Shown: positions 5,648 to 60,256, counted from the first letter of the stretch. The stretch: 64,000 bases of DNA from an uncultured Candidatus Saccharibacteria bacterium (GCA_964347785.1 CAYFZH010000001.1:35589-99588), one strand, 5' to 3'. The notes: generated by a model from the sequence alone, not told the origin. Numbers and translations are program-made.

Positions 5648-5914
5648 CTAGTAGGCGTCCGCGTAGTACGGATGCCGGAGTCCGGCCTCATAGTCGAGGT
5701 CGTCATACTCGTAGGGATCGTATCTCCTGAGCGCAGGCTCCTCTTCATCGAAGAAGGGGTAGATGTGCCCATCCTCGCGCTCAGATTCGAAAAAGTGGTC
5801 AAGTTCCTCCGCATCTTCCTGCTCCTCCTGGAGACTGAGACGGAGTTCCTCTTTCTTGCTGATCTGAAAGCGGTTCGCCTTGAGAATGCCCTTCTGTGCC
5901 ATGCCAGCCTCCAT
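5648..5914 (-). CDS. Highly acidic, aromatic-rich hypothetical protein (88 aa)
   Basis: GC-rich ORF (about 58% GC) with a D/E/Y-rich C-terminus. It is convergent with uvrA and divergent from uvrC, and followed by its own terminator hairpin. No SD was seen. Confidence 0.45.
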   Translation of the reverse strand: MEAGMAQKGILKANRFQISKKEELRLSLQEEQEDAEELDHFFESEREDGHIYPFFDEEEPALRRYDPYEYDDLDYEAGLRHPYYADAY

Positions 5915-5941
5915 GAATCGAAGCGGTTGAAAATGTCTCTA

Positions 5942-5957
5942 TATAGTATATACTATA
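5942..5957. promoter_or_regulatory. Perfect 16-bp palindrome TATAGTATATACTATA in the divergent promoter region, overlapping the -10 box (TATAAT 5954..5959) of uvrC
   Basis: Seen directly in the sequence. It is a candidate operator or divergent promoter element between ORF 5648..5914 and uvrC. Confidence 0.35.
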
Positions 5958-5961
5958 ATAG

Positions 5962-7179
5962 ATGAAAAGTCAAGAGCTCAAGAATTTTAACTTACCAGAT
6001 GCGCCGGGGGTGTATTACTTCTTAGATAAAAAGGGGAAGATTTTGTATGTAGGCAAAGCAACTTCCTTGAAGGATAGGGTCAAGAGTTACTTCGCTCGAG
6101 ATATCTTGATGACACGTGGACCGAAGATCCAGAAGATGCTCGAGGATGCGGTGAGAGTCGAGTACAAGCAGACTGACTCGGTACTTGAGGCACTTATACT
6201 TGAGGCGAACGAGATCAAGCGACTTCAACCTCCTGCCAACTCCAAGGACAAAGATGACAAGAGTTACAACTTCGTCGTGATTACCAAAGAGGATTTCCCA
6301 CGGGTACTAATAAAACGCGGTAGAGAGTTAGAAACAAACACTATGATATATCATAGTGTCTTCGGTCCGTTCCCGAACTCGGGGGAACTCAAAGAGGCTT
6401 TGCGAATAGTCAGGAAGATTTTTCCCTTCAGAGATGAGAAGTGCAAGATCACTGATAAACACAAACCTTGCTTCAACGCACAGCTAGGTCTCTGTCCGGG
6501 ACCTTGTGCGGGATGGATTACGAAGACGGACTACAAGAAGCAGATTAGGAATATCAAAATGTTTCTCGAAGGCAAGAAGCCCAAGCTTATCAAGTCTCTA
6601 GAGCAAGAGATGAAAGCGTTTGCCAAGAAGCACGAGTTTGAGAAAGCGGATGAGATCAAGAAAAAGATTTTTGCCCTCGATCACATTCAAGATATCGCTT
6701 TGATAAAGGCTGACATTACGACCTACGACGAACGACCAACGACATTTAGAATTGAAGCTTATGACATCGCCCATCTCTCGGGTAAAGATGTGGTAGGGGT
6801 GATGACTGTGGTTGAGGATGGAGAGACTGCGAAGAGTCAGTATAGGAAATTTAAAATCAAGCTAGACAAGAACGACGATACCAAGAACCTGAGGGAAGTC
6901 CTCGAGAGACGTCTCAACCACAGAGAGTGGCGACTACCTGAGCTCATCGTTGTAGATGGAGGAGTGGGTCAGATCAACGTCGCGAAGAGTGTGCTCAAGG
7001 AGAGAGGTCTCAAGATTAATGTAGTCTCGGTGGTCAAGGATGATCGGCATAAGGCTCGAGAAATCTTGGACCTCAAGGATAAGACTCTCGAGAAAGCGAT
7101 CATCCTCGCCAATGCAGAAGCGCATCGCTTCGCCATCGGTTATCACAGGAAGCTCCGTGGGAAAGGATTTCGTATATAA
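5962..7179 (+). CDS. uvrC: Excinuclease ABC subunit C (UvrC), short form lacking the C-terminal (HhH)2 domain
   Basis: N-terminal GIY-YIG motif (GVYYF..GKILYVGKA), a Cys-rich segment, the UvrB-interaction region and an RNase H-like endonuclease domain. At 405 aa it is shorter than the typical ~600 aa. Confidence 0.85.
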   Translation: MKSQELKNFNLPDAPGVYYFLDKKGKILYVGKATSLKDRVKSYFARDILMTRGPKIQKMLEDAVRVEYKQTDSVLEALILEANEIKRLQPPANSKDKDDKSYNFVVITKEDFPRVLIKRGRELETNTMIYHSVFGPFPNSGELKEALRIVRKIFPFRDEKCKITDKHKPCFNAQLGLCPGPCAGWITKTDYKKQIRNIKMFLEGKKPKLIKSLEQEMKAFAKKHEFEKADEIKKKIFALDHIQDIALIKADITTYDERPTTFRIEAYDIAHLSGKDVVGVMTVVEDGETAKSQYRKFKIKLDKNDDTKNLREVLERRLNHREWRLPELIVVDGGVGQINVAKSVLKERGLKINVVSVVKDDRHKAREILDLKDKTLEKAIILANAEAHRFAIGYHRKLRGKGFRI

Positions 7180-7186
7180 TAAGTTC

Positions 7187-8083
7187 ATGTCGAAGATAAA
7201 AGTTGGTGTGCTCCGTGGTGGACCATCACACGCGTATGATGATTCGCTCAAGACTGGTGGCTATGTACTCTCGCTCTTGCGAAAGATGCCAGAGACTTAT
7301 GAACCAGTCGATCTCTTTGTCTCGAGAAATGGGGACTGGCACTCTGCTGGGCTTGTGACAGAACCTCACGACGTCTTGAGTAAGGTCGATGTGGTGTGGA
7401 ACGCAGTCCACGGTCCTTACGGAGAAGATGGTCAGGTGCAGAAACTCTTCGATAACCTCATGGTTCCATATATTGGTCCGTCCTCATTTTCCTCAGCTCT
7501 GTCTTACAACAAAGACTTCTCCAAAAAGCTTTATACAGAACACTCCCTCCTGACCCCTAGGTCATATGTCTTGAGCGAGGAGAGCGTGAGTGAAGATGAA
7601 TTGGTCAAGGTCTTCCACGCCTTCGTCTACCCTGTGGTGGTAAAGCCTGCCACAGGCTCTCGGGCTCTAGGGGTGAGACTGGCTCACACCTTCCAAGAAC
7701 TCAAGGACTTGGTCAAGAGAACTTTCTCCCACGCCCCTAAGGTGCTAGTTGAGGAGTATGTGAAGGGGAGAGTCTCGACTTGTACAGTAATCGAGGATGC
7801 AAAGGGGGAGAGACTCTACGCACTCCTACCTACAGGTAGACAACCGGTCGAGGTGAACAAGAAGATTGAGGAGATGGCGAAGAAGGCTCATGAGATCCTG
7901 GGTCAGAGACATTTCTCGAGTTCTGACTTCATCATCACTCCGAGAGGGAAGGTGTATATCCTCGAGACCAACTCTGTACCGGTCTTCTACGAAGGTTCAC
8001 ATTTGCATCAGTCTCTAGAGTCTACCGGTTGGCAACCGCAAGACTTCGTCGAACATTGTCTGAAGCTGACTCTCAAGAGTTAG
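7187..8083 (+). CDS. ddl: D-alanine--D-alanine ligase
   Basis: Ddl N-terminal motif (KIKVGVLRGGPSHAYDDSLKTG) and ATP-grasp motifs. The ORF-track start at 7040 is an out-of-frame extension into uvrC. The ATG at 7187 gives 299 aa. Confidence 0.85.
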   Translation: MSKIKVGVLRGGPSHAYDDSLKTGGYVLSLLRKMPETYEPVDLFVSRNGDWHSAGLVTEPHDVLSKVDVVWNAVHGPYGEDGQVQKLFDNLMVPYIGPSSFSSALSYNKDFSKKLYTEHSLLTPRSYVLSEESVSEDELVKVFHAFVYPVVVKPATGSRALGVRLAHTFQELKDLVKRTFSHAPKVLVEEYVKGRVSTCTVIEDAKGERLYALLPTGRQPVEVNKKIEEMAKKAHEILGQRHFSSSDFIITPRGKVYILETNSVPVFYEGSHLHQSLESTGWQPQDFVEHCLKLTLKS

Positions 8084-8089
8084 ATATGA

Positions 8090-8127
8090 GAAAGGGCGCC
8101 CGCTGTGTATAAGCCGAGCGCCCTCTA
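8090..8127. terminator. Bidirectional hairpin terminator (agggcgc..gcgccct) between the convergent ddl and minus-strand ORF
   Basis: 7-bp GC stem seen directly in the sequence. Confidence 0.45.
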
Positions 8128-8376
8128 ACGATACTCACGACTCTTCTTGTTTTCTGTATAGTATGTGTCACCGATACTTCGGCGACACCGCGGACAGAGA
8201 TCGTGATCCTTGTCCGTCTTCACAAATCTCTTTTTACACAAAACGACAACACCATCCCTCGTTCTCCGACTCCTTCTGATGAAAATCGCTTTATTGGGAC
8301 ACCACGCACAGACCTTCTTGGTCTGTTTGTTCAAAACCCTTGTCCTACCTTTTCTGTTGGGCTTGATCGGGCGCAT
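8125..8376 (-). CDS. Small, very basic zinc-ribbon protein (83 aa; CxxC-x35-CxxC)
   Basis: Strong SD AGGAGGTG 4 nt upstream of the ATG. Two CxxC pairs, K/R-rich. Function unknown. Confidence 0.55.
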   Translation of the reverse strand: MRPIKPNRKGRTRVLNKQTKKVCAWCPNKAIFIRRSRRTRDGVVVLCKKRFVKTDKDHDLCPRCRRSIGDTYYTENKKSREYR

Positions 8377-8540
8377 CGTGCACCTCCTGCTGGACAGGAT
8401 AGCATAGGTATCCTTTTATTCAATTGGGTGGAGTTGGACTATGCCTTTTGGAACAAATTCACAATAGAATGCGGGAGGTTGGCTCAGATTTTGAAAGAAA
8501 TATAATACGAAAGACCCGTTGATATTATCTCAGGGTCTTT

Positions 8541-8813
8541 TTAGTCTTTGAACGGGATCTCCTTGTGCAACTTATGAACAACATCCCACTGTTCCTTACG
8601 GGTGAGTCTCGAGAGTTCCTCCCACAGCGAATCCGTGTACTCTGCCATTGGAGAGAATACCATTAACTCCTCCCCGTCGATGCGGAGTACTGGAATTGGT
8701 GTTCTGGCTTGTGAGAGCGGAGTGGTTCCTAGGAAGACCCCGATCTTCAAGGGCTCATCCTCGTTGCTTCTTACGATATACGAAACGCCTTCTTTGTAAG
8801 CTCTGCCCTTCAC
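8541..8813 (-). CDS. Hypothetical protein (90 aa)
   Basis: GTG start preceded by GAGGAGG. It has its own promoter (TTGACA-17-TAATGT) and a downstream terminator hairpin (8508..8545). Confidence 0.5.
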   Translation of the reverse strand: MKGRAYKEGVSYIVRSNEDEPLKIGVFLGTTPLSQARTPIPVLRIDGEELMVFSPMAEYTDSLWEELSRLTRKEQWDVVHKLHKEIPFKD

Positions 8814-10199: not shown

Positions 10200-10553
10200 G
10201 TGAAGAGAATCCTCATCGTGGACGACGAAGAAGGGATTCGTGAGATTCTGAGTCGGGTGTTATCGGCTCACCAACTTACGGTGCTTGCAAGTGCCGAGGA
10301 GGCGGTCGTTGAGCTCATGGCGGGGAAACGCTACGATGCCATCATCACCGATGTGGATATGTCTCCAGGCATATCTGGCATCGAGCTTATCCGTATCGCT
10401 CGGGCCAATAATCTTCTGGGTGGGGCGAACATCTTCGTGATGACAGGACTTCCTACCCCGGAGAGGGTCGACTTCTGCGATGAGATCGGGGCTGTGCTTC
10501 TGACAAAGCCGTTCAACATCCAGAGGTTCGCTTCTCTCGTCTCCGGAGTCTAG
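10200..10553 (+). CDS. Single-domain response regulator (CheY-like receiver only)
   Basis: 117 aa with the acidic pocket DDEEG, the phospho-acceptor Asp in ITDVDM, and a conserved T/K (TKPF). No output domain. GTG start. Confidence 0.8.
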   Translation: MKRILIVDDEEGIREILSRVLSAHQLTVLASAEEAVVELMAGKRYDAIITDVDMSPGISGIELIRIARANNLLGGANIFVMTGLPTPERVDFCDEIGAVLLTKPFNIQRFASLVSGV

Positions 10554-10661: not shown

Positions 10662-10916
10662 TTACTTCAAGTGTCCTGAAGCAAGCTTGGTCATCTCAAA
10701 CATTGTTACCTCCTTCTTGCCGAAGATAGGCATAAGCTTGTCATCAGCGAAGATGTTGCGCTTGTTAGCAGGATTCTGAAGATCGTTCTTCTTGATGTAT
10801 TCCCACATCTTCTTGACGACTTCTCCACGAGGCATAGGACCCTTGCCAACCACGGCTTCAAGCTCTGGTGAGAGGGTCATCGGCTTCATAAGGGCCGCGT
10901 TTGCAGTTCTAACCAT
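10662..10916 (-). CDS. SWIB/MDM2-domain protein
   Basis: 84 aa matching the bacterial SWIB consensus (..LSPELEAVVG..PMPRGEVVKKMWEYIKKNDLQNPANKRNIFADDKL..). Confidence 0.75.
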   Translation of the reverse strand: MVRTANAALMKPMTLSPELEAVVGKGPMPRGEVVKKMWEYIKKNDLQNPANKRNIFADDKLMPIFGKKEVTMFEMTKLASGHLK

Positions 10917-15894: not shown

Positions 15895-15926
15895 ACCGGT
15901 ATCTCGTCGTGTGACGTGATACCGGC
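15895..15926. terminator. Hairpin accggtatc..gataccgg. A T-tract on the minus-strand side makes it the terminator of the minus operon 15930..16693
   Basis: Inverted repeat seen directly in the sequence. It may also terminate ychF. Confidence 0.5.
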
Positions 15927-15929
15927 TGG

Positions 15930-16166
15930 TCAGTGTTGTGTCGGCTTCTTCTTCTTGCCGATGACAATCTTGACCTTACTTTCACCCTTCGCCCCGACGC
16001 AGTCGGGGCACCCAGAGGAGAACTCGATCTTGGCGTAGAGTACTTCGCCAGACCTCTCCTTCTTGTTGAGTTCCTTGCAGGGCTTTGCGGAGAGGAATCT
16101 TTTGAACTCCTTCTCCGTTAGCTCCCGGACTCGCTTGCACTTCTGACAGAAGGAGTGGTAAGTCAT
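15930..16166 (-). CDS. Small zinc-ribbon protein (78 aa; CxxC..CxxC), lysine-rich C-terminus
   Basis: Four Cys arranged as two CxxC pairs. A 4-nt ATGA overlap couples it to the upstream gene. Confidence 0.5.
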   Translation of the reverse strand: MTYHSFCQKCKRVRELTEKEFKRFLSAKPCKELNKKERSGEVLYAKIEFSSGCPDCVGAKGESKVKIVIGKKKKPTQH

Positions 16167-16645
16167 CGCACTCCTCCTGCCAGTCGCTTCGCCACTTCCG
16201 GAGCGGCGAATGCGATCGCCGCGTCCCGGTAGCTACAGTTGACCACGAGGTCAGCCTTCGCTACCTGCTTCGATGAGTTGATCGTCAGATCGATAGTGAC
16301 GATCTTCCCCTTGAAGCAGAAGAAGCAGTCCACTCCGTGGAAGAAGTCCAGAGGACTCCCCACCGCGGTATAGAACTCGAGCCCTGACCAGTCATCGAGC
16401 CCGAGTGCGAGCGCCACACTTGCGTGCAGGTCACTTGCGAATCTCGGCTCGGGGTCAGACGGGTCCCACGGCTGGTGAGACTTCACTGCCCGGAGGCTCT
16501 GATGGAAAGGAACGTACTGACCGTTCCAACTCACCAGAGCGTGACCGATGACTTCTTCCTCCACTTCCGTGCCGGTCGGGCACGTGGGTCTCCAAGACAT
16601 CTCGCTCTCCTCTCTGGTTGCCGGAATGGCTACTATGTCTATCAT
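16163..16645 (-). CDS. Hypothetical protein (about 160 aa), GC-rich, no recognisable domain
   Basis: GC-rich ORF (about 58%) translationally coupled to the zinc-ribbon ORF. The start is uncertain: the ATG at 16645 is preferred over the GTG at 16693, and no SD was seen. Confidence 0.45.
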   Translation of the reverse strand: MIDIVAIPATREESEMSWRPTCPTGTEVEEEVIGHALVSWNGQYVPFHQSLRAVKSHQPWDPSDPEPRFASDLHASVALALGLDDWSGLEFYTAVGSPLDFFHGVDCFFCFKGKIVTIDLTINSSKQVAKADLVVNCSYRDAAIAFAAPEVAKRLAGGVR

Positions 16646-16741
16646 AGCATATTCTATACCTAATGTCAAGTAGCTAAAACAGCCTATAAACACGGCTTAA
16701 GGTGTGTTACTAAAAGGGTCAAATTTTGCTATATTATCTAT

Positions 16742-22899: not shown

Positions 22900-23307
22900 A
22901 TGAAAAAGTTCATGCTGTTCCTCGTACTGCTGGTATATGCCATCGGTGTGAATTTCTGTGGAAGCTGGCTTCTCAGTGGTCACTTCAGACTCACAGACAT
23001 CCGTAATCCTGGCGATGTCGTACTTCTGGTGGTGGAGACAATCATTCTCCTCATCTTTTGTAAGGGGAGCTGGGCAAATCATGAAATCCCGTTTTCTCGA
23101 ACGATCACTGTGGTCTTTGGCATTGCCGGGCTCATGGTCAGTAATTATCTCGCTATCGTGTTTGTCGACGGAGGTTTCTCTACGAGCATGGCGTTGGAGT
23201 GGTACTACTTCCGTTTGTACCTACTCATGATCCTGCCGGTGGCGTTTTTTGGTCATCACACCGGCACGGTCTGGGTGGGTAACCTGGGTTGCCCATCAAA
23301 AGTCTAG
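22900..23307 (+). CDS. Hypothetical 4-TM membrane protein (135 aa)
   Basis: SD AAGGAGG, hydrophobic helices and a downstream terminator. Confidence 0.5.
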   Translation: MKKFMLFLVLLVYAIGVNFCGSWLLSGHFRLTDIRNPGDVVLLVVETIILLIFCKGSWANHEIPFSRTITVVFGIAGLMVSNYLAIVFVDGGFSTSMALEWYYFRLYLLMILPVAFFGHHTGTVWVGNLGCPSKV

Positions 23308-25838: not shown

Positions 25839-26426
25839 ATGAGCGATAAGATTCTGGAGCTCAAGAAGATTGAGGAAGAAGTACTCGTTCTCAAGGATTC
25901 TCCCCTCTACTCTCTACGTGTGGACAATAGTTATCTCCCTGTTACAGGAGAGGGGAGTTGTGATGCACGAATTATGTTTGTCGGCGAAGCTCCGGGGGAG
26001 AATGAGGCGAAGACGGGGAGACCCTTCTGTGGGCGATCTGGCAAACTTCTCGACACCCTTCTTGAGTCTGTGGGTGTACGGCGCGAAGATGTCTATATCA
26101 CGAACATCGTGAAGGACCGTCCACCCAAGAACCGTGACCCTCTTCCAGAGGAGATTTCTCTCTACGCACCCTTCCTCGATCGGCAGATAGAGATCATTAA
26201 GCCTAAGGTGGTAGTCACTCTCGGACGCTTCTCTATGATGTATGTGATGAGTCGTTACGGATTTGAGAGTGAGCTTGCTCCTATAGGTGAGCTTCATGGC
26301 AAAGTATTCCAAGGTCAGACCTTTAAACTCATCCCGCTCTATCACCCAGCAGCCGCTATTTATAATCAGAAACTTCTAGAAACTCTTCGGAGTGATTTCC
26401 AAATTTTGAAAAGAGTGGTAATCTAG
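25839..26426 (+). CDS. Uracil-DNA glycosylase, family 4
   Basis: UDG family-4 motifs (GEAPGENEAKTGRPFCGRSG, HPAA). Confidence 0.8.
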   Translation: MSDKILELKKIEEEVLVLKDSPLYSLRVDNSYLPVTGEGSCDARIMFVGEAPGENEAKTGRPFCGRSGKLLDTLLESVGVRREDVYITNIVKDRPPKNRDPLPEEISLYAPFLDRQIEIIKPKVVVTLGRFSMMYVMSRYGFESELAPIGELHGKVFQGQTFKLIPLYHPAAAIYNQKLLETLRSDFQILKRVVI

Positions 26427-26459
26427 TGGATTAGACATGTTCCCAAGGAGGGTCTGTCT

Positions 26460-26687
26460 ATGTGTGTGCATCCACCATCGCTTCTACGGCGTACCGAAAC
26501 CCCTGGTATTACGCGGTGTCTCGAATGTGGTGACACGCACAAGTGCGATCACCCTCAGTCTCGACAGACGGCAGGTCACGAGATCACCGTTTGCGCTGCT
26601 TGCGACGAGATCACGGCGTTCGACAGGGTCGTGCTCGTCGCACAGCCTTCGAGGATGGTTTACCCACCAAGCCATCTTCACCACTGA
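26460..26687 (+). CDS. GC-rich micro-protein with a CxxC-x17-CxxC zinc ribbon (75 aa), tentative
   Basis: Strong SD AAGGAGGG 7 nt upstream of the ATG, and a terminator immediately downstream. The region is about 60% GC with ORFs open in several frames, so a structured RNA cannot be excluded. Confidence 0.4.
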   Translation: MCVHPPSLLRRTETPGITRCLECGDTHKCDHPQSRQTAGHEITVCAACDEITAFDRVVLVAQPSRMVYPPSHLHH

Positions 26688-26693
26688 TTCCAC

Positions 26694-26735
26694 CGGCACC
26701 CCACGCGCGAAGCGTCGGGTGCCGTTCTATTTTTA
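26694..26735 (+). terminator. Rho-independent terminator (compound hairpin ccggcaccc..gggtgccg followed by TTCTATTTTT)
   Basis: Hairpin followed by a T5 tract just upstream of alaS. Confidence 0.6.
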
Positions 26736-26760
26736 GTGCCGAAATGCTATATTTCTAAGC

Positions 26761-28023
26761 ATGAATTCAAAAGAAATAAGAAAACGATTTGCAGATTTTT
26801 TTGAAAAGAGGGGACACGCTGTCATCCCTTCCGCTTCTCTCGTGCCTGATCAGAACGACAAGTCAGTACTCTTCAACACTGCAGGGATGCAACCTCTCCA
26901 ACCTTACCTTATGGGTGCAGAGCATCCGAAGGGTAAGCGCTTGGTCAACATTCAGAAGTGCGTCCGCACTCAAGATATCGAAGAAGTGGGGGACAAGACG
27001 CATGACACCTTCTTCGAAATGCTTGGTAACTGGTCTCTCGGTGATTATTTCAAAGAAGAGGCGATCAAGTGGAGTTTCGAGCTCCTTACTTCCAAGGAAG
27101 AGGGTTTCGGTCTCGATCCAAAGAGACTTTATGTCACCGTCTTCGAAGGAGATGATAACGCTCCTAAGGATACAGAGGCCTTCGAGATTTGGAAGAAGTA
27201 TATGCCAGAGAATCGTATCTATTTCCTCGGGGCAGATAAGAACTGGTGGAGTGTGGGACCCAATGGCCCATGTGGTCCTGATACAGAGATGTACTACGAC
27301 GTGACTCCAGAAGGTCTCGGTGATCTTAGTTTGGAGGAGTTCAAGAAGGTGGACGACGAGCAGAAGGTGGTCGAGATCTGGAACGACGTCTTCATGCAAT
27401 ATGAGAAGAAGGATGGCAGTATTGTAGGCAGGCTTTCTCAACAGAATGTCGATACCGGTGCCGGTCTTGAGCGTCTGGTTATGGCTCTGCAGAACAAGGA
27501 CAACATCTTCGATACAGATCTCTTTGCACCGCTCATGGCGATACTGCCGAAGGAGAAGGACCTCAAGTCCGCTCGAGTGGTCGCCGACCACATGCGTACA
27601 TCCGTTTTCATGATTGCTGATGGTGTAACTCCATCGAACACCGATAGGGGTTATATCCTCCGTCGACTATTACGCCGTTCGTATGTCCATGCGAGAAAAC
27701 TGGGAGCTAGTCCAGAAGTTCTTGAGTCTGTAGCAGAGCTCGTGGTGTCGCATGAGAGTTATAAGGGTCTCTACAGCTTCAACCCTGATACCATAAAGAT
27801 AATCAGAGAAGAAATAGAGAAGTTCAAGAAAGCTCTTGAAGCTGGACTAAAGCAAGTGGAGAAAGGAGCCGATCCCTTCACCCTCTTTACCAGTTATGGT
27901 TTGCCACTCGAGATTATCGAAGAGGTAACAGCAGTAGATCGGGAGAAGTTTGCGAAACAACTGGCTGAACACAAACAAATGTCCAGTGTGGCGGGTGAGC
28001 AGAAATTTAAAAGTACGTTATAA
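26761..28023 (+). CDS. alaS: Alanyl-tRNA synthetase, catalytic/tRNA-recognition N-terminal fragment only (420 aa; no editing or C-Ala domains)
   Basis: AlaRS N-terminal motifs (FFEKRGH, FNTAGM, KCVRT.DIE, LGNWS.GDYFK). The ORF ends with a TAA stop and the next gene is unrelated. Confidence 0.85.
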   Translation: MNSKEIRKRFADFFEKRGHAVIPSASLVPDQNDKSVLFNTAGMQPLQPYLMGAEHPKGKRLVNIQKCVRTQDIEEVGDKTHDTFFEMLGNWSLGDYFKEEAIKWSFELLTSKEEGFGLDPKRLYVTVFEGDDNAPKDTEAFEIWKKYMPENRIYFLGADKNWWSVGPNGPCGPDTEMYYDVTPEGLGDLSLEEFKKVDDEQKVVEIWNDVFMQYEKKDGSIVGRLSQQNVDTGAGLERLVMALQNKDNIFDTDLFAPLMAILPKEKDLKSARVVADHMRTSVFMIADGVTPSNTDRGYILRRLLRRSYVHARKLGASPEVLESVAELVVSHESYKGLYSFNPDTIKIIREEIEKFKKALEAGLKQVEKGADPFTLFTSYGLPLEIIEEVTAVDREKFAKQLAEHKQMSSVAGEQKFKSTL

Positions 28024-28030
28024 TTTGTCT

Positions 28031-29365
28031 ATGCCAAAAAATATCGACGATGTAATCTTGCCAGAAAGGAGGAAAAGCATCAGGAATATCCCCATCCCTG
28101 AAGGTCGGAGCAAAAAGGGTGAGAAAGTTGCTCTCGACGGTGTTAAGCGTCCTGCACGAGTAGCAGAAGATAGAGAAGAAGTTTCTCACGAAGCAGAACG
28201 TCACGAGTCATCTCGTCGTACACACAATCCCAAGAAGAAGATCTGGCTCGCTTCAGGTTTCGCCATCTTGGTACTCATCTTCTCTGTCCTCTCAATGTTT
28301 AAGGGTGGCACTCTCTCCTATGTGCCTAAGTCGGTAGATCTCAAGTTTGCAAACGACATCTTCTCTGCGGTCAAGACTGGTGAGGATAAGCTCACTTATA
28401 GTGTGGTCAAGCTCTCTGGGGATAAGGGAGTGAGTGTCCCTGCTACGGGAGAACAGGCGGTGAGTCGTAAGGCTTCCGGTATGATCGTGGTCTACAACGA
28501 CGCTTCAGCCGAACCTCAGAAGTTGGTCGAGAACACTCGTTTCGAGTCCCCAACAGGCAAGATCTACCGTATCGCTACAGCTATCACTATCCCCGGCAAG
28601 AAGACTGTGGCGGGTAAGTCTCAACCAGGGAGTATTGAGGTCAAGGTCAACGCAGATGTCGCTGGTGCTGAATACAACTCGGAGCCTACTGACTTTACCG
28701 TCCCCGGGCTCAAGGGATCTCCTCGTTACACCACTATCTATGCTCGTTCCTCCACTGCTATCTCTGGAGGGTTTGTGGGCAAGGAGAAGGCTGTCGCTCC
28801 AGCAGACTTAGAGAAGGCTAAGGCAGAGCTCAAGACTTCCCTCAGCCAAGGACTTCTAGCCAAGGCGCAAGCCGAGGTGCCGTCTGAGTTTATCCTCTTC
28901 CCCACACTCTCATCCGTCAGTTTTGAGGACCTACCACAGAGCAATACTGGTAGTGGGAGCACTGTGACGGTCAATCTCCGCGGTCACCTATACGGTATTA
29001 TGTTTAAGAAGAACGACCTCTCCCACGAGCTAGGCAAGAAGAAGGCCTCTCTGGCGAAGGATGATTCTGTTGAGCTCGTCTCCTTCGATTCTCTAGAACT
29101 AGCCTTCGCCGGTGTCGCACCAACCAACCTTCTCTCTCTCAATGAGATTAGCTTCAAGGTTACTGGAGAAAGTAAGCTCGTCTGGCGTACTGACGAGGTG
29201 GCTCTCAAGTCAGATATCCTAGGACGCAAGAAGTCTGAACTCTCTACTATCCTGAAGAATTACCCTACAATCTCATCCGCCTCTGCCACACTTAGACCAT
29301 TTTGGAAGACGACTTTTCCTCTAGAGGGTGATAAGGTGTCCGTGAAGAAATTAGAAATCAAATAA
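28031..29365 (+). CDS. Hypothetical membrane-anchored protein (444 aa; charged N-terminus, one TM, large beta-rich ectodomain)
   Basis: The ORF-track start at 27950 is out of frame. The ATG at 28031 lies 7 nt after the alaS stop. TAATG overlap with infA. Confidence 0.5.
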   Translation: MPKNIDDVILPERRKSIRNIPIPEGRSKKGEKVALDGVKRPARVAEDREEVSHEAERHESSRRTHNPKKKIWLASGFAILVLIFSVLSMFKGGTLSYVPKSVDLKFANDIFSAVKTGEDKLTYSVVKLSGDKGVSVPATGEQAVSRKASGMIVVYNDASAEPQKLVENTRFESPTGKIYRIATAITIPGKKTVAGKSQPGSIEVKVNADVAGAEYNSEPTDFTVPGLKGSPRYTTIYARSSTAISGGFVGKEKAVAPADLEKAKAELKTSLSQGLLAKAQAEVPSEFILFPTLSSVSFEDLPQSNTGSGSTVTVNLRGHLYGIMFKKNDLSHELGKKKASLAKDDSVELVSFDSLELAFAGVAPTNLLSLNEISFKVTGESKLVWRTDEVALKSDILGRKKSELSTILKNYPTISSASATLRPFWKTTFPLEGDKVSVKKLEIK

Positions 29366-32890: not shown

Positions 32891-33292
32891 ATGACTGTCA
32901 CCAAAGAAAACAAGTATATAGAGACCGTAGGAAGAAGGAAGACTTCTGTGGCTCGTGTTCGCATCACTCCTGCTGCCAAGACTACTATCGTTGTCAACGA
33001 ACGCGAATTTGAAAACTATTTCCCAACCAAGGAGTTGCAGAATGTCGTCCTTGCCGTCTTTGCTGATGCCACTGAGAACTTCACTGTCACTGCCAAGCTC
33101 GTCGGAGGTGGAGTGTCCTCTCAAGCACAGGCTCTAAGACACGGTCTCGCTCGTGCTCTAGAGAAGAATGCTCCAGAGCTCCGTACCAAGCTCAAGGTTA
33201 AGGGTTACCTCAAGCGTGACCCTCGTGCCAAGGAACGCCGTAAGTTCGGTCTCAAGAAAGCAAGAAAGGCCCCTCAGTGGTCTAAACGCTAA
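32891..33292 (+). CDS. rpsI: 30S ribosomal protein S9
   Basis: S9 consensus with C-terminal ..RRKFGLKKARKAPQWSKR. Confidence 0.95.
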   Translation: MTVTKENKYIETVGRRKTSVARVRITPAAKTTIVVNEREFENYFPTKELQNVVLAVFADATENFTVTAKLVGGGVSSQAQALRHGLARALEKNAPELRTKLKVKGYLKRDPRAKERRKFGLKKARKAPQWSKR

Positions 33293-33296
33293 AGCG

Positions 33297-33330
33297 AAAA
33301 ACCAGACTCGAAAGAGTCTGGTTTTGTTTT
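33297..33330. terminator. Bidirectional rho-independent terminator aaaaccagactc-gaaa-gagtctggtttt followed by GTTTT
   Basis: Perfect 12-bp stem flanked by A- and T-tracts. It ends the ribosomal-protein operon. Confidence 0.75.
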
Positions 33331-33333
33331 GGA

Positions 33334-33444
33334 CCACTGAGGGTGAGAAAGGGGTCGGGAAAACTCCGGTTTTCCCGTGGAGGAAGGCAGGGCGAAGCCC
33401 GTTGGAAAACCGTGGGTTTCCAAAGAGCGGGAGCGACTCAGTGG
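33334..33444 (+). ncRNA. GC-rich structured element of about 111 nt, closed by the helix ccactgag/ctcagtgg, with internal hairpins built on GGAAAAC/GTTTTCC repeats. Class unknown, strand uncertain.
   Basis: Long-range 8-bp closing helix and two or three internal hairpins (gggaaaac-tccg-gttttccc; tggaaa..tttcca; gggc-gaa-gccc). It lies between two bidirectional terminators with no plausible ORF. Class and strand are unconfirmed. Confidence 0.3.
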
Positions 33445-33452
33445 AGCAAGAG

Positions 33453-33495
33453 ATATAAAAAGAATCGGGCGAGCCACAGTGGCTCGCCCTTTTCA
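33453..33495. terminator. Bidirectional terminator gggcgagcc-acagt-ggctcgccc flanked by U-rich tracts
   Basis: 9-bp GC stem with TTTTC on the plus side and ATTCTTTTTATA on the minus side. It terminates minus-strand gene 33509..34159. Confidence 0.65.
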
Positions 33496-33508
33496 CACAG
33501 AAGAACTT

Positions 33509-34159
33509 CTACCAGCTCGGCCACCACGTGACGTTCGCACGCAGTTTCCGGTTGTGGGTGCTGTACGCGTCGACCTCGAGGCGAGCTTCGGCGTTGTCGC
33601 TGAACCGTCTCGCGGCTCCGACGACCACTCCGAGGTAAGGCCGGTGACCCTCTTCCGGCTTCAGTTCGAGCCAGTCGCCAGAAACGCAGAGGTATACGTC
33701 GAGACAGGTCCTCGACTTGTACATCTCGTACGCCTTGTGGTTGGTGACGAGTGCCACTCCGCCGAAGACGCCCGCGATCGGTCGGATGCCGAGCTTGTCG
33801 AGTACCTTCGGTCTCGGCGTTTCCCATGTCATCTGACCACGGACTGCGAGGTTGCTCGAGCGGACAACTCCGCCCTTGCTGTAGCTCACCGGACCGTAGT
33901 CTGAACCGCCCATCTCGTGGACGTCGACCTTCTCGTTGATGGAGAAGCGTTCGACGACGAGGCTTGCCCGAAGGGGCTTGTCGCGGTCGGCGAACATGAT
34001 GCCGATGGACCATGGCTTGATCGGCTCAGCTTCTCCATAGAAGTTGAGATCCGATGACGAGCCCAAGGTGTACACCGTGCCAGTGATGCCGATAGTGCGC
34101 TCCTCGGCCTTGGCCACAGATGCGACCAGCAGGACCAGAAGAATCATGAGATATTTCAC
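33509..34159 (-). CDS. Secreted beta-rich protein with signal peptide and a C-terminal aromatic residue (..VTWWPSW), resembling small outer-membrane beta-barrel proteins
   Basis: GTG start at 34159 with SD GGAGGT. Signal peptide KYLMILLVLLVASVAKA, alternating hydrophobic pattern, and a terminal W. About 58% GC. The ORF-track start at 34228 is an upstream extension. Confidence 0.5.
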   Translation of the reverse strand: MKYLMILLVLLVASVAKAEERTIGITGTVYTLGSSSDLNFYGEAEPIKPWSIGIMFADRDKPLRASLVVERFSINEKVDVHEMGGSDYGPVSYSKGGVVRSSNLAVRGQMTWETPRPKVLDKLGIRPIAGVFGGVALVTNHKAYEMYKSRTCLDVYLCVSGDWLELKPEEGHRPYLGVVVGAARRFSDNAEARLEVDAYSTHNRKLRANVTWWPSW

Positions 34160-34199
34160 TTCTCTACCTCCAAGGGGTGAGCGGGATGCTCTGTGTGCT

Positions 34200-34228
34200 A
34201 TACTAGCATAAATTATATAGATTGTCAA
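34200..34228 (-). promoter_or_regulatory. Sigma-70-like promoter TTGACA-17-TAGTAT for minus-strand gene 33509..34159
   Basis: Consensus hexamers with 17-nt spacing on the minus strand. Confidence 0.5.
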
Positions 34229-34240
34229 GTAATCACTTGA
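34225..34240. promoter_or_regulatory. Inverted repeat TCAAGT-aatc-ACTTGA overlapping the -35 of the minus promoter and upstream of grpE. Candidate operator.
   Basis: 6-bp perfect IR with a 4-nt spacer between the divergent gene 33509..34159 and the grpE-dnaK-dnaJ operon. It does not match CIRCE. Confidence 0.3.
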
Positions 34241-34274
34241 TTTAAGCCCTATTTTAAGTTATCTTGTGTGCACC

Positions 34275-34802
34275 ATGCAGGATGATGAAAAAGATATTGA
34301 GTTAGATAAGGAGGGTATAGACGACTCGGTCATCTCTGAAGAATACCAAGGTGATACTATCGCTAAGCTCAAGGGTAAGGTGAAGGACGCCGAGGCGAAG
34401 GCGAAGGAGTACCTAGATGGATGGCAGAGGGCACAGGCAGAGTTTGTAAACATTCGCAAGAGAGACGAGGAGGCGAAGGGTGAGTTCCTCAAGTTCGCCA
34501 AAGCTGATCTTGTGGAGCAACTTATGCCGGTCCTCGACAGTCTAGAGCTCTCTCTACCTCACGGGAACAAGGAGCTCGAGGTCATATCCAAGCAGTTCCT
34601 CTCTATCTTGAAGGCAAACGGTTTCGAGGAGGTAAACCCTCTCGGTGAGAAGTTCGACCCGAGACTTCACGAGTCTATAGGGACAGAGTCTGTGAAGAGT
34701 GAGGAGGAGGATCACAAGATTCTTGAAGTGATGCAGAAAGGTTATATACTATCAGGGAAAATTATTAGACCCGCCAAGGTAAAAATAGGCGAATTTAATT
34801 AA
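34275..34802 (+). CDS. grpE: Nucleotide exchange factor GrpE
   Basis: GrpE coiled coil and C-terminal beta domain (..EFVNIRKR.....[18 protein letters not shown]..). An alternative GTG start lies at 34266. Confidence 0.85.
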
Positions 34803-48006: not shown

Positions 48007-48381
48007 ATGAAGAAGGTTCCATATCCACATTCGTTTGAGGCTGGAACTGAATGGCAGGATGGCTATGTTCATCCAGAAGGGTTTAAAGTTAAGCTTAAAG
48101 CTCGTTTCCCAGACTGGTCTGGCTTACACGGACTTCTTGATAGTGAAGACAAGTGTGTGTGGGAGCTCCTTTGGATCTATCAAGGAAGACTCGGTACAAT
48201 CAAAGCTGAAGAAATTGTCGCTGCTGATGACAATGGCACCTTGAAGGAGATTGTCGCCAGAGTACGGGAAGCTCTTGAGCTTCACAACTGGCTCAACGAC
48301 CTTGAGAAGGAATTCTTCCCAGAAGAAATCGCTCGTCGTGAGGAGCGAAGGAAAAGAGATCTCGAGAGCTGGTTTTATTAG
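48007..48381 (+). CDS. Hypothetical protein (124 aa)
   Basis: SD AAGGAGGTG upstream. No known motif. Confidence 0.45.
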   Translation: MKKVPYPHSFEAGTEWQDGYVHPEGFKVKLKARFPDWSGLHGLLDSEDKCVWELLWIYQGRLGTIKAEEIVAADDNGTLKEIVARVREALELHNWLNDLEKEFFPEEIARREERRKRDLESWFY

Positions 48382-48407
48382 CAACAACTGAATCATCCTA
48401 TAAATCA

Positions 48408-48429
48408 GCGCCCGGCTTATGCCGGGCGC
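48408..48429. terminator. Hairpin gcgcccggc-ttat-gccgggcgc between convergent genes
   Basis: 9-bp GC stem with U-rich flanks on the minus side. Confidence 0.5.
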
Positions 48430-48447
48430 GTTGTAGTCTCACTGGGT

Positions 48448-48690
48448 TTAGGTTGAGCGTACCTCTGTTGGTATTCTCCTCGACACGAAGGCGTGGTCCA
48501 GTGGCACGATATATGCCTGCTGTTCCGTCCTCCTGTCGGAGGACTCTCTTTTGAATTGCCCATGAGAGTGCTCGGTGAATCCTCTCCGAGTCAGTTCGTT
48601 ACGGGCTACTTGCTCGCTACCGTATGGGCCAAAATTGCCATCTTCTCTTGTAGAGAAACTATAAGTGGTGATCTGCACACAGACTCTCAT
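48448..48690 (-). CDS. GC-rich small hypothetical protein (80 aa)
   Basis: Strong SD GGAGGTGG 5 nt upstream of the ATG at 48690. About 58% GC. The ORF-track start at 48738 is an upstream extension. Confidence 0.4.
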   Translation of the reverse strand: MRVCVQITTYSFSTREDGNFGPYGSEQVARNELTRRGFTEHSHGQFKRESSDRRTEQQAYIVPLDHAFVSRRIPTEVRST

Positions 48691-48771
48691 GGTGCCACCT
48701 CCGCTGGATAATGTAACACCAGATATTCTATAAAACAAACTAGGTTATATTAAAATTATTTGTAAGATAAT

Positions 48772-48800
48772 TTGACTTGTTACTATAAATAGTGTATAAA
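48772..48800 (+). promoter_or_regulatory. Sigma-70-like promoter TTGACT-17-TATAAA
   Basis: Consensus hexamers with 17-nt spacing in an AT-rich intergenic region. Followed by TGTGCTATG. Confidence 0.5.
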
Positions 48801-48806
48801 TGTGCT

Positions 48807-48985
48807 ATGCCTAGAGCATATTACAGTGCACATATGAATTCCTGCGGGCTCGGTCAGAAGATCGACGCCTCTTTTGCCGTATCTACCCAGAACGGATTCA
48901 TATTGTGTTCAGCTGTAATTGTCTAATCTCTCTAACTAAAAAGAATTTGGAAAACTGGAGCTGAACAGAAGCTTCAGTTTTTGTT
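48807..48985 (+). ncRNA. Roughly 180-nt promoter-to-terminator transcript without an ORF: candidate sRNA or cis-regulatory attenuator leader of the GNAT gene
   Basis: No ORF of 30 aa or more. Long-range helix atatgaattcc/ggattcatat, and an intrinsic terminator (ctgaa..ttcag + TTTTTGTTT at 48958..48985) about 40 nt upstream of the GNAT start, with no promoter between them. Confidence 0.4.
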
Positions 48986-49024
48986 TAGCAGTTGTTCTTT
49001 CACTTCAACACAGAGGATACGAAG

Positions 49025-49594
49025 ATGGTGACAGGAAAAGTGGTTTTTCTCCATGGTAAGAATGTGGTCCTACGTCCGGTTGAGAAGAGTGACGTGCCGA
49101 ACCTTGTCAGGTGGATCAACGATCCTGATGTGCGGCGGTTCCTCAATAACTCCTTTCCTCAGAATGAGCGTGACGAGGAAGAGTGGGTGAGTTCTCTGAG
49201 CAAGAAGACAAATAACATCGTCTTTGCTTTGGAGACTCTCTCTGGCTCTCCGATCGGAGTTATGGGACTTCACAACATCAAGTGGCGTGACGGTGTGGCG
49301 ACCACAGGAGCGTTTATCGGGGAGAAGGAGTATTGGGGCAAGGGTCTGGGGTCTGAGGCTAAACTGCTTCTCCTCGACTACGCCTTCAACACTCTGAATC
49401 TCAGGAAGATTTGCTCCGATGTTATCGCCTTCAACGAGAGGAGTTACAAGTACAGTCTCAAGTGTGGCTACAAGGAAGAGGCGAGACTCAAGTCCCACAT
49501 CTTCCGCGCTGGTCGCTACTGGGACATGATCCTCTTGGCAGTCTTCCGCGAAGACTTCGAGTCTGTTTGGGAGAAGTATCAGAAGGGAATCTAG
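49025..49594 (+). CDS. GNAT-family N-acetyltransferase (RimJ/RimL-like)
   Basis: GNAT motif A (IGEKEYWGKGLGSEAKLLLLDYAF). The ATG at 49025 has an AGAGGA SD-like sequence upstream. The ORF-track TTG at 48992 is an extension. Confidence 0.75.
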   Translation: MVTGKVVFLHGKNVVLRPVEKSDVPNLVRWINDPDVRRFLNNSFPQNERDEEEWVSSLSKKTNNIVFALETLSGSPIGVMGLHNIKWRDGVATTGAFIGEKEYWGKGLGSEAKLLLLDYAFNTLNLRKICSDVIAFNERSYKYSLKCGYKEEARLKSHIFRAGRYWDMILLAVFREDFESVWEKYQKGI

Positions 49595-49600
49595 TGTGCA

Positions 49601-49637
49601 AAAGCCTGTGGTCTACACGACCACAGGCTTTTTTATA
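49601..49637 (+). terminator. Strong rho-independent terminator aaagcctgtggtc-tacac-gaccacaggcttt followed by TTTAT
   Basis: 13-bp stem followed by a T-tract after the GNAT gene. Confidence 0.8.
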
Positions 49638-49675
49638 TTATATAAAAGAAAAGGACCACCCTGGAAAGAAAAACT

Positions 49676-49872
49676 TCCATAGGTGGCCCCGCGAACGAGC
49701 GAACGAGCGAACGAGATTGAGACGAAGGACGAGCCCCCGGTCCGCGCGAGAGGTCCGCGGGGACCGAACAGTGTCGGCGCCACGGTGAGCTACTCGCCGC
49801 GAACCGGGGTAAGTCAGGTGGAGAGGCTATGCCGTCGAATGAATCACCCGGCGGACACGCCCCGTCGCCACC
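49676..49872. other. GC-rich (about 65%) non-coding island of about 200 nt with an 8-nt x3 tandem repeat (gcgaacga, 49691..49714) and several GC hairpins. Unknown element.
   Basis: Composition shift against about 35% GC flanks. Contains the direct repeat ggtccgcg x2 and long-range complementarity ggccccgcg/cgcggggacc. Only junk-like ORFs overlap it. Confidence 0.3.
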
Positions 49873-50000
49873 CTTATCTATATCCTATCATACATCACAT
49901 TTTTTGTCAAGCATTTGTTATATATCATCTAGAAATGGCTCAGATTAGCCCTCCTTGAGACTTGGGGGATAGAGGAAGAAAAGCTATAATACTAGGACTT

Positions 50001-58519: not shown

Positions 58520-59661
58520 GAATCTTATTTACCGGCGGAGGGACAGGAGGACACTTCTACCCTATCATCTCTGTAGCTCAAGAGCTCAACGCCTTGGCTA
58601 AGGAGAAGAAACTTCTCGATCTCGAGCTGTTCTATATGGCACCGACACCGTACAACCCTGGTGTCCTCTTCGAGAACAATATTACTTATAAGAAAAATAG
58701 TGCCGGCAAACTCCGCCGGTCTGCTGGTGTGGTGAGCTCCCTTAGAAACTTCTTCGACTTATTCAAAACTGCGTGGGGAGTCTTTACCTCCGTGGTGCAA
58801 GTCTATCGTCTTTACCCAGACGTCATCTTCGGCAAGGGTGGCTACGCCTCATTCCCAGCACTTCTTGCTGGGCGGATTCTCCGTATACCAGTAGTGATCC
58901 ACGAGTCTGACACCGTACCGGGGAGAGTGAACTTGTGGGCGGGGAAGTTTGCCCAGCGAGTCGCTGTCTCGTATCGAGACGCGGCGAAGTACTTCGCATC
59001 AGAGAAGGTGGCTTATACAGGGCAACCTCTCCGACCTGAGATTACTCACCCGCTGACAGAAGGAGCCAGAGACTTCTTGAAGATTGAGAACGATATCCCT
59101 GTCGTACTCGTCCTCGGAGGTTCTCAAGGTGCTCAGAAGATCAACGACACTATCCTCGAGTCCCTGAAGCCTCTAGTAGAGAAGTACGTGGTCGTACACC
59201 AGACTGGTCCCAACAATATCCTCGAGGCCAAAGCCACTGCTGATGCTGTCCTCCACAGCTCACCGCACAAGGACCGTTATAAACCTTTCGACTACCTCAA
59301 CCCCCTAGCGCTCCGTATGTCTGCTGGAGTGGCAAGTGTGGTGGTCTCGAGAGCGGGCTCAACTATATTCGAGATCGCTTCTTGGGAAGTGCCGGCGATC
59401 ATCATTCCTATCAACGAGAAGGTCAGTCGTGACCAGCACACAAATGCTTTCGCCTTCGCTCGGGCGGGAGGCTGTGAGGTGATTGAGGAGAAGAACCTCC
59501 GTCCCAATATCCTCCAAGCAGAGATCGAACGCTTGGTGACCAATAAGGAAGTGAGAGACAAGATGCGCGAAGCGGATAAGATATTTTACAAACCAGATGC
59601 AGGCAAGCTCATCGCCGAAGAAGTGCTCAAGATTGCCCTAAGTCACGAGATAGAGAAATAA
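58516..59661 (+). CDS. murG: Undecaprenyldiphospho-muramoylpentapeptide beta-N-acetylglucosaminyltransferase MurG
   Basis: GT28 N-terminal motif (ILFTGGGTGGHFYP) and C-terminal motifs. 4-nt overlap with ftsW. Confidence 0.9.
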   Translation: MRILFTGGGTGGHFYPIISVAQELNALAKEKKLLDLELFYMAPTPYNPGVLFENNITYKKNSAGKLRRSAGVVSSLRNFFDLFKTAWGVFTSVVQVYRLYPDVIFGKGGYASFPALLAGRILRIPVVIHESDTVPGRVNLWAGKFAQRVAVSYRDAAKYFASEKVAYTGQPLRPEITHPLTEGARDFLKIENDIPVVLVLGGSQGAQKINDTILESLKPLVEKYVVVHQTGPNNILEAKATADAVLHSSPHKDRYKPFDYLNPLALRMSAGVASVVVSRAGSTIFEIASWEVPAIIIPINEKVSRDQHTNAFAFARAGGCEVIEEKNLRPNILQAEIERLVTNKEVRDKMREADKIFYKPDAGKLIAEEVLKIALSHEIEK

Positions 59662-59698
59662 AAATGTTAAAGGGCGCGGTCCCGTAGGATCCGCGCCC
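59659..59698. terminator. Bidirectional terminator gggcgcgg..ccgcgccc preceded by a T-tract on the minus side
   Basis: 8-bp GC stem. It terminates minus-strand gene 59714..60256 and may also terminate murG. Confidence 0.55.
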
Positions 59699-59713
59699 AG
59701 TCTTGCTACTCGA

Positions 59714-60256
59714 TCAGGCGATCCGCTCGCGAATCCTGTAGATCCGCTCGCGAATGTCTCGTCTGATGAGTTTGTACATCTCCCCGATGAGGTCCCGCAG
59801 GTGGCGAAACGGCGGAGGCACCTGCTCGCTCTCGTAGTCGAGCGCCGGCCAGATTTGGCCGAGCCTGATGAGCTGGTAGAGCTCACGCAGATCCGAGATG
59901 TTCTTGGCTCGGAGCTTCACATGGTAGTGGCGATCTCTGTTCGAACTGATTTCTTCGAGACTCGCACTCGCCGACATGAGTCGATAGTGGCCGAGACGTC
60001 GACGGGGGGAGAGTCCTTCACCGAAGTTGTCGTAGTAGCTGACCTCCTCGACGAATTCCCGAAGAACCTTCGGAACGTCCGTGAGCAGGTCATCAAGATA
60101 GATGGTGATCTTCCCGTTACCGTAGTCTGCTACCTCGACCTCGTTGATGGTCAGCACATCGTGCTGACGTCGATTGTCACCGCTCCCGCCCCATCGTTGG
60201 GAAACTGAAGCCCCGGCATTCAACAGGGCCTCTCGATTGAGATAGGCTTGCAACAT
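59714..60256 (-). CDS. GC-rich orphan hypothetical protein (180 aa; Arg-rich, C-terminal RIRERI repeats)
   Basis: About 59% GC against about 46% in flanking genes. Opposite strand to all neighbours, with its own terminator. No recognisable domain. Confidence 0.45.
   Translation of the reverse strand: MLQAYLNREALLNAGASVSQRWGGSGDNRRQHDVLTINEVEVADYGNGKITIYLDDLLTDVPKVLREFVEEVSYYDNFGEGLSPRRRLGHYRLMSASASLEEISSNRDRHYHVKLRAKNISDLRELYQLIRLGQIWPALDYESEQVPPPFRHLRDLIGEMYKLIRRDIRERIYRIRERIA

Follow-up and report, generated by a model that had tools for sequence, protein, structure and literature searches.

Small, GC-rich genes led by Shine-Dalgarno sequences, with promoters and terminators of their own, between the housekeeping operons of a Parcubacteria genome

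The 64,000-nucleotide (nt) stretch CAYFZH010000001.1:35589-99588 (GCA_964347785.1; hereafter, the window, with positions counted from its first letter) originates from a Candidatus Zambryskibacteria-like Parcubacteria genome of the candidate phyla radiation (CPR). Its placement in Candidatus Zambryskibacteria/Paceibacteria is based on RpoA-centred relatives, and the identical sequence is present in independent assemblies. Nearly all long open reading frames (ORFs) of the window lie on the plus strand, along which the cumulative GC skew climbs; they include the housekeeping genes uvrA/uvrC, ychF, leuS, UDG, a split alaS, rpsM-rpsK-rpsD-rpoA-rplQ-rplM-rpsI, grpE-dnaK-dnaJ, asnS, scpA/B, ftsW-murG and gltX. 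Among them are seven segments that an initial annotation had described as GC-rich islands, most with a minus-strand gene of unknown function, led by a Shine-Dalgarno (SD) sequence and bracketed by bidirectional terminators. The seven prove heterogeneous, but most of them represent one recurring small, self-contained, leadered transcription unit. Its anatomy comprises a sigma-70 promoter close to the consensus (frequently with an extended -10 element of the TGn type), a 35-110 nt-long 5′ untranslated region (UTR), a strong SD, an ORF and an intrinsic terminator. The ORFs are rich in C-ending codons, encode Parcubacteria-restricted proteins without assigned function and usually lie head-on in the gaps between operons.

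As the initial annotation had stated, the genes are SD-led: 7/7 small ORFs are preceded, at a spacing of 3-8 nt, by an SD of 5 nt or more, as compared to 7/60 other genes (Fisher p = 4e-6). Four of the latter have strong SDs, namely 10200-10553 (+), 22900-23307 (+), 48007-48381 (+) and 8541-8813 (-), and could also belong to the SD-led class. They comprise one stand-alone response-regulator receiver (54.8% GC) and three small ORFs of average GC. From the housekeeping genes of the window, SDs are nearly absent, and a -10-like box lies 4-7 nt before the ATG in six first-in-operon housekeeping genes and 2 nt before it in one more; examples of SD-less starts with such a nearby box are at 26761, 16742, 20733, 56227, 654 and 14494(-). 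The -10 boxes of the units, by comparison, precede the start codon by 34-111 nt, and four units have near-consensus promoters of the form TTGACA-17-TAnnnT with a TG extended -10. The near-ATG boxes, together with the missing SDs, suggest leaderless or SD-independent initiation to be widespread in this lineage. The SD-poor housekeeping genes fit the report that an anti-SD motif is detectable in just 48% of Parcubacteria 16S rRNAs (PMC9297842; Tsurumaki et al. 2022).

Base composition sets most, albeit not all, of the segments apart. Against a background of 49.3% GC in the window, which agrees with the near-50% genome of the initial annotation, six of the seven are enriched: 5648-5914 (55.8%, 95th percentile of stretches of the same length), 16163-16693 (56.7%, 98.5th percentile), 26437-26740 (57.9%, 98th percentile), 33334-34159 (59.3%, 99.9th percentile, z 3.9), 49676-49872 (67.5%, the maximum of the window, z 4) and 59714-60256 (57.1%, 99th percentile). 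The seventh, 48448-48690, shows no enrichment (50.6%). The range of 57-65% originally given thus holds for the segments at 57.9% and 59.3% only, with 59714-60256 at its lower edge. Six of the seven therefore deviate from their host in the way expected of islands (GC 55.8-67.5% against 49.3%), as does GC at third codon positions (GC3; 0.71-0.78 against 0.58), and the mean GC of the seven small ORFs is 56.2%, as compared to 49.5% for the other genes (p = 3e-6). Stretches of 300 nt with 57-58% GC also occur inside housekeeping genes, i.e. rpsD, dnaK, asnS, ftsW and that of an M23 peptidase.

Gene models were read from coding potential and sequence inspection. Five segments contain minus-strand ORFs, in line with the orientation first proposed, but the gene in 26437-26740 is on the plus strand, 49676-49872 is non-coding, and 33334-34159 consists in part not of a gene but of a conserved structured RNA right after rpsI. 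Likewise, a GC-rich hairpin is present in every unit, but strictly bidirectional terminators are confined to 33467-33489 and 49600-49632; the hairpins at 5611-5637, 15895-15928, 48408-48429 and 59672-59698 have a T-run for the minus strand alone.

In unit 1, a promoter-like site (TTGACT-17-TATACT; 5945..5973, minus strand) precedes a minus-strand coding sequence (CDS; 5648..5902) for a very acidic protein of 84 amino acids (aa), or of 88 aa if translated from an alternative ATG at 5914. This CDS has the SD GGAGG 5 nt upstream, 55% GC and a GC3 of 0.72, and is the best coding frame (score 0.43); its product has no match in Pfam, PADLOC or PHROG. The intrinsic terminator of the unit (5611..5637, minus strand) forms a hairpin that is also directly downstream of uvrA.

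Unit 2 is a minus-strand bicistron. Its promoter (TTGACA-17-TATGAT with a TG extended -10; 16641..16669) has 11/12 consensus matches and is kept in two of the related loci compared below, L133 and L134. The first gene, orph145 (16163..16600; 145 aa, SD GAGGAG, 59.8% GC, GC3 0.71), is followed by one encoding a 78-aa zinc ribbon of the CxxC...CxxC type (15930..16166; SD AGGAGG, GC3 0.76), with the upstream stop and the second start overlapping in ATGA; the zinc ribbon gene stays downstream of orph145 in L133 and L134. A terminator hairpin, ACCGGTATC...GATACCGGT, followed by TTTTCTT on the minus strand, was read at 15895..15928.

The plus-strand gene between UDG and alaS (26460..26687; SD AAGGAGG) encodes a 75-aa Cys/His-rich protein with two C-x-HP...C-x2-C modules and ends in a hairpin, GGCACCC...GGGTGCC, followed by GTTCTATTTTT (26694..26724, plus strand). 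Beyond this terminator, a -10 box is located 7 nt ahead of the alaS ATG. The same slot is occupied in L003, L004, L006 and L009 by small genes related to the 75-aa gene, with a tblastn match in L006. A T-box leader upstream of alaS was considered for 26437-26740 and discarded, as there was no Rfam match and relatives carry an SD-led small Cys/His-rich ORF here. The neighbouring alanyl-tRNA synthetase is itself encoded by two consecutive ORFs that overlap by ~74 nt, one (26761-28023) for a catalytic tRNA-synt_2c part of 420 aa and one (27950-29365) for a separate part of 471 aa; a two-gene layout is also called in L132 (10688-12013 and 12021-12666).

Downstream of rpsI, orph213 (33509..34162, minus strand) encodes 217 aa from a GTG, with a signal peptide and a C-terminal aromatic residue; its name refers to the 213-aa ATG-start model that served as database query. 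It has the SD GGAGGT, 60% GC, a GC3 of 0.78 and a promoter (TTGACA-17-TAGTAT with TG; 34200..34228, minus strand) that is kept in L132. A perfect GC hairpin of 10 bp, preceded by an A-tract and followed by a T-tract (33467..33489), forms a bidirectional terminator, common to orph213 on the minus strand and the RNA downstream of rpsI on the plus strand. The 80-aa ORF at 48448..48690 (minus strand; SD GGAGGTG, 50.6% GC) has a weak coding signal, is a gene call in two independent assemblies and matches DUF6316 below the cut-off (E 1.3e-4); nine GC pairs and a minus-strand T-run make up its terminator (48408..48429). Finally, orph180 (59714..60256, minus strand; 180 aa, 57% GC, GC3 0.71) is part of a cassette with a promoter read from the sequence as TTGACA-17-TATTAT with a TG extended -10 (60368..60396, minus strand) and a terminator, GGGCGCGG...CCGCGCCC followed by a T-rich tract (59672..59698, minus strand), that is kept with the cassette in L129, L130 and L142.

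Two pieces of the flagged DNA are candidate RNAs rather than genes, i.e. the element after rpsI (rpsI-3′ RNA) and a 67% GC element beside scpA with a conserved promoter. The rpsI-3′ RNA (33331..33447, plus strand; ~115 nt) forms a conserved multi-stem junction immediately after the rpsI terminator and is 72-84% identical to elements following rpsI in L048 (11483-11613), L052 (7583-7708), L063 (4285-4416), L065 (4838-4935) and L067 (12130-12238), where ribosomal protein S9 is 65-70% identical. Compensatory changes fall in its helices, and a covariance model finds these five and the window copy at E <=1e-13; weaker copies are present in L011 (2379-2501) and L058 (12280-12349). All copies are right after rpsI, with a patchy distribution among Zambryskibacteria-like genomes, and in the window and L065 the RNA is followed by a terminator of its own.

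The GC-rich element (49640..49875, minus strand) is predicted to fold strongly (z = -6.3) and includes three perfect tandem copies of CGAACGAG (49692-49715). A 14-bp hairpin between AAAA and TTTT (49600..49632) serves as bidirectional terminator between it and the plus-strand GNAT gene, and its promoter (TTGACA-17-TAGGAT with TG; 49882..49910, minus strand) shares homology with the one that, at the corresponding site in L009, precedes an unrelated, SD-led gene for 101 aa on the minus strand. Within 49676-49872 there is no codon periodicity, and no gene is called there in independent assemblies; no homologue of 49640-49875 was found in the fetched data, and a tblastn search of 48381-49965 with the L009 slot protein was negative. 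The element may be either a small RNA or a decayed gene. A tmRNA, to which a GGGGCG...AUUCGACGG motif pointed, was rejected, since neither ARAGORN nor the Rfam tmRNA models found one and no matching 3′ end is present.

The 105-nt 5′ UTR of orph180 (60257..60361, minus strand) is predicted to fold into three helices and ends in a purine-rich SD, AAAGGTGA. It is conserved in five contexts (the window, L129, L130, L141 and L142), travelling with the gene, and has a possible alternative pairing in which ACUGRU and ACUGAC each pair with GUCAGU, making it a candidate cis-regulatory RNA. A hammerhead ribozyme, suggested by the motif CUGAUGA, was dismissed, given that the window has CUGGUGA instead and that the motif falls within helix 1. 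At gathering threshold, Rfam yields three tRNAs only in the window, and nothing credible emerged when 26380-26800, 33250-34300, 48380-49960 and 60230-60410 were scanned permissively.

For comparison, 126 related loci, centred on rpoA and scpA, were fetched (L numbers). Among 5.8 billion proteins, orph213 has 3 relatives (5 by exhaustive hidden Markov model search), orph180 has 16 and orph145 has 36, and every homologue found sits in a Parcubacteria-type context. Within the families, conservation is higher at the first two codon positions than at the third, which, together with the existence of family members, argues that the unit genes are real; conserved motifs and confident AlphaFold2 (AF2) models were likewise obtained. 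An all-against-all BLAST of GC-rich ORFs revealed no family in common beyond orthologues.

The orthologues allow the age of the compositional bias to be judged. orph145 keeps its place between ychF and leuS in L133 and L134, and its amino-acid identity to both equals that of the neighbouring genes. In L133 the gene has 59.5% GC in a genome of 46.7%, and in L134 53.7% in a genome of 36.2%, with a GC3 of 0.59 against about 0.25. At identical residues, the frequency of the same codon matches the codon-usage expectation for the window-L134 and L133-L134 pairs; thus, the synonymous sites of orph145 are saturated and the bias has long been held. The one AT-rich member of this family, L136 (28.5% GC), is without SD. 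The only close relative of orph213 (50% identity) occupies the same rpsI/grpE slot in the same orientation in L132, with 61% GC in a genome of 45.5%, a GC3 of 0.82 and conserved promoter and GGAGG; divergence between the two was faster than that of their neighbours. Hence, orph145 and orph213 do not look like recent arrivals: both are syntenic in L132-L134, at least as diverged as their neighbours and synonymously saturated. SDs are retained in orthologues inside 5′ UTRs that have otherwise diverged. The codon shift, seen in five genomes, is chiefly toward C at third positions (C3; 0.41-0.48) with T3 reduced, so that NNC far exceeds NNT in unit genes (TTC 0.8-0.92, AAC 0.85-1.0); CGN arginine codons and G3 are also up.

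In contrast to these syntenic genes, orph180 relocates. It occurs in at least four contexts besides that of the window, including beside ClpB, rpoB and a LAGLIDADG gene, and moves as a full cassette of promoter, conserved 5′ UTR, CDS and terminator. Its homologues have 58.4% GC in a genome of 43% (L130) and 53.8% in a genome of 37.7% (L142). The LAGLIDADG homing-endonuclease gene (L142 1074-1889, minus strand), a single case, is directly upstream of the cassette (2189-2734).

Across the clade, we surveyed 1,963 ORFs from ~100 related loci with a simple ORF caller, defining as GC-rich those at least 8% above local GC (n = 52-53). Of this class, 52-53% are SD-led (out-of-frame control, 7.5%), as compared to 9% of other ORFs; 56% against 12% are oriented opposite to their neighbours; and 19% against 4% have a perfect hairpin plus T-run after the stop. 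All three differences remain significant among ORFs of up to 250 aa. The combination of GC richness, SD, own terminator and opposite orientation is hence clade-wide, which argues that the pattern belongs to the lineage rather than to this window. This upholds the other possibility that the initial annotation had named, that the genes are a class of their own, specific to the lineage and expressed in a different mode, and generalizes it across the clade. Some GC-rich outlier ORFs of relatives are of signal-peptide or lipoprotein type (L102 2696-3268, L081 16784-18220, L030 17374-17859 and L133 8085-8600); a few signal-bearing ones are beta-rich with a C-terminal aromatic residue, recalling small outer-membrane barrels, which would be odd in a lineage regarded as monoderm. 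Back in the window, the minus-strand gene 10662-10916 encodes a stand-alone 84-aa SWIB/MDM2-domain protein (Pfam E 5e-30), a domain uncommon among bacteria.

Occupancy of the gaps in which the units lie varies. The four junctions tested, rpsI/grpE, UDG/alaS, asnS/scpA and murG/gltX, are only 0-20 bp wide in many relatives and in others hold different, often small, SD-led, GC-rich genes, so that presence, the comparison of which the initial annotation had suggested, is patchy at all four. Flanking direct repeats, also raised there, did not exceed chance at the unit borders. The one exception, a 12-bp direct repeat, TTTTGAAAAGAG (26404-26415 and 26799-26810), did not hold up as a target-site duplication: its copies belong to UDG (DFQILK) and AlaRS (FFEKRGH) codons that are conserved in relatives without the insert, and their likeness is a coincidence. 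There is no integrase, transposase or other mobility gene in or beside the units. Searches for a phage origin gave no IMG/VR relatives and, in PHROGs, nothing beyond a marginal match of the 78-aa zinc ribbon (E 0.003), and PADLOC returned no defence-system match for unit proteins.

On balance, we slightly favour the view that the units form a distinct, maintained expression class of leadered, SD-led, GC- and C3-rich, insulated accessory genes beside an SD-independent core. The combination persists, in genomes of 36-49% GC, in same-slot orthologues with saturated synonymous sites. This argues that high GC3/C3 and the SD are maintained features, not the fading signature of an import. Several observations pull the other way. 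Neither the window nor any fetched locus contains a 16S rRNA gene whose 3′ end could show an anti-SD (CCUCC); the clade-wide statistics come from a crude ORF caller and from loci picked around two marker genes; the flagged ORF 48448-48690 is SD-led yet has no GC enrichment, and the orph180 homologue in L141 is not GC-rich. The ribosomal-protein and rpoA genes of the window have neither C3 bias (C3 0.30, T3 0.29) nor SDs. Lastly, synonymous identity between the window and L133 copies of orph145 is 0.70, as compared to 0.47 expected, and above that of the neighbours, which could reflect a more recent exchange.

That last excess would sit well with the repeated insertion of foreign or selfish cargo named by the initial annotation, here taken as recent horizontal transfer from a donor that is richer in GC and uses SDs, and whose composition and signals the units would still carry. 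The slots measuring 0-20 bp in many relatives and filled with other content elsewhere, the orph180 cassette in at least five different contexts (one adjoining the LAGLIDADG gene) and the very narrow families speak for it as well. However, amelioration to host composition should erase a donor signature, and orph145, diverged like its neighbours, and orph213, diverged faster, are syntenic, saturated and still GC3-rich, so that their persistent GC3 speaks against recent insertion. Besides, the homologues are all in Parcubacteria-type contexts, and integrases, transposases, above-chance flanking repeats and support from IMG/VR, PHROG or PADLOC are lacking. We therefore regard insertion as unlikely for the set as a whole; what stands of it are the empty slots and the moving cassette, and at most it is viable mainly for the latter. 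Improbable, too, is GC-biased gene conversion or a local mutational bias at recombination-hot slots between operons, with SDs and terminators incidental to stand-alone genes. The slots are highly variable among relatives, hinting at frequent recombination, and the GC rise is strongest at third positions, but the effect is very large (GC3 +0.3 in L134 and L132), limited to the ORF and asymmetric, with C favoured over G; adjacent slot genes (a 179-aa membrane protein and a 124-aa ORF) are not enriched, and the SD association (52% against 9%) would be left unexplained.

If the units were simply the most highly expressed genes, ordinary translational selection would account for C-ending codons and for strong promoters, SDs and terminators, and both the near-consensus promoters with extended -10 elements and the strong preference of NNC over NNT are as it would predict. 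It is nonetheless decidedly improbable: the lack of bias and SD in the ribosomal-protein and rpoA genes argues that such selection is not the cause, CGN arginine codons and G3 are raised too, and the proteins are narrow-range and accessory. An artefact, i.e. spurious frames from stop-poor, GC-rich structured RNA or assembly chimeras, has a slight chance at best and is largely refuted for the protein-coding units by the conservation of positions 1 and 2 over 3, the conserved motifs and confident AF2 models, the same sequence in independent assemblies and the existence of syntenic orthologues; overlapping ORFs of 175, 191 and 239 aa do occur in three frames at 33.3-34.2 kb, and 49676-49872 and 33331-33447 are indeed non-coding. 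Most far-fetched is the idea that these canonical promoter, SD and terminator signals, which differ from the symbiont's own, serve expression outside the encoding cell, e.g. in a host bacterium.

Most probably, a maintained class of SD-led units would work as follows. Bulk initiation in the lineage would be SD-independent, via A/U-rich or leaderless starts. GC-rich, structured mRNAs would be barred from this route and would need SD pairing, while their GC3/C3 would be kept high, and their SDs in place, by selection, or a bias specific to these genes, that acts on the composition of mRNAs and codons. Private terminators and opposite orientation would shield the units from read-through, given that the operons presumably rarely have strong terminators themselves, and the outcome would be a gene set under independent control; at least one unit, the orph180 cassette, would additionally relocate whole. 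A bolder version is conceivable, though we consider it doubtful: two parallel channels of expression, one SD-independent and largely leaderless for housekeeping, the other made of selection-maintained, GC-rich, structured, SD-dependent mRNAs. Equally tentative is the proposal that each gene of the second channel has a private promoter, 5′ UTR switch and terminator, together amounting to an independently switchable, cassette-mobile accessory regulon.

A large share of bacterial diversity belongs to the CPR, whose members are nearly all uncultured and have many small genes of unassigned function. GC3 richness, an SD, an own promoter and terminator, and opposite orientation could provide a rule by which CPR accessory genes are sorted and annotated. 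If our reading is true, SD-dependent and SD-independent initiation exist side by side in a lineage thought to lose the anti-SD, which raises the question of what holds synonymous-site GC high against genome drift. The locus further adds two candidate structured RNA families outside Rfam (the rpsI-3′ RNA and the orph180 5′ UTR) and one orphan GC-rich RNA-like element.

Among known systems, the loss of the anti-SD in part of the Parcubacteria concerns the same phylum-level group and accounts for most genes here lacking an SD, but the study in question examined rRNA, not mRNAs, and describes no SD-led gene subset (PMC9297842). Integron cassettes and miniature islets resemble the orph180 unit, which relocates as a block of promoter, 5′ UTR, CDS and terminator. 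Unlike integron cassettes, however, which are normally promoterless, the units are single and scattered and have their own promoters, without attC-like sites, arrays, an integrase or flanking repeats. Bacteroidota are an SD-poor lineage with a minority of SD-led genes. Mycobacteria have leaderless and leadered gene classes (PMC3898074, PMC4633059). The likeness to both is that SD-independent or leaderless initiation is the default and that genes with SD and 5′ UTR are the minority, implying two initiation routes per cell. To our knowledge, the SD-led minority of these groups is not marked by a large conserved GC3 excess, opposite orientation or private terminators. Similar in gene content are atypical or ORFan genes and small islets (the 'atypical gene' class of GeneMarkS-2, PMC6028130), which are likewise short, lineage-restricted, of deviant composition and of unassigned function; like them, the units lie between conserved syntenic genes. 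While such accessory genes are as a rule richer in AT than the core and drift to host composition, the units are GC-richer, persistently so, and, unlike ORFan and islet genes, have a specific set of expression signals in common.

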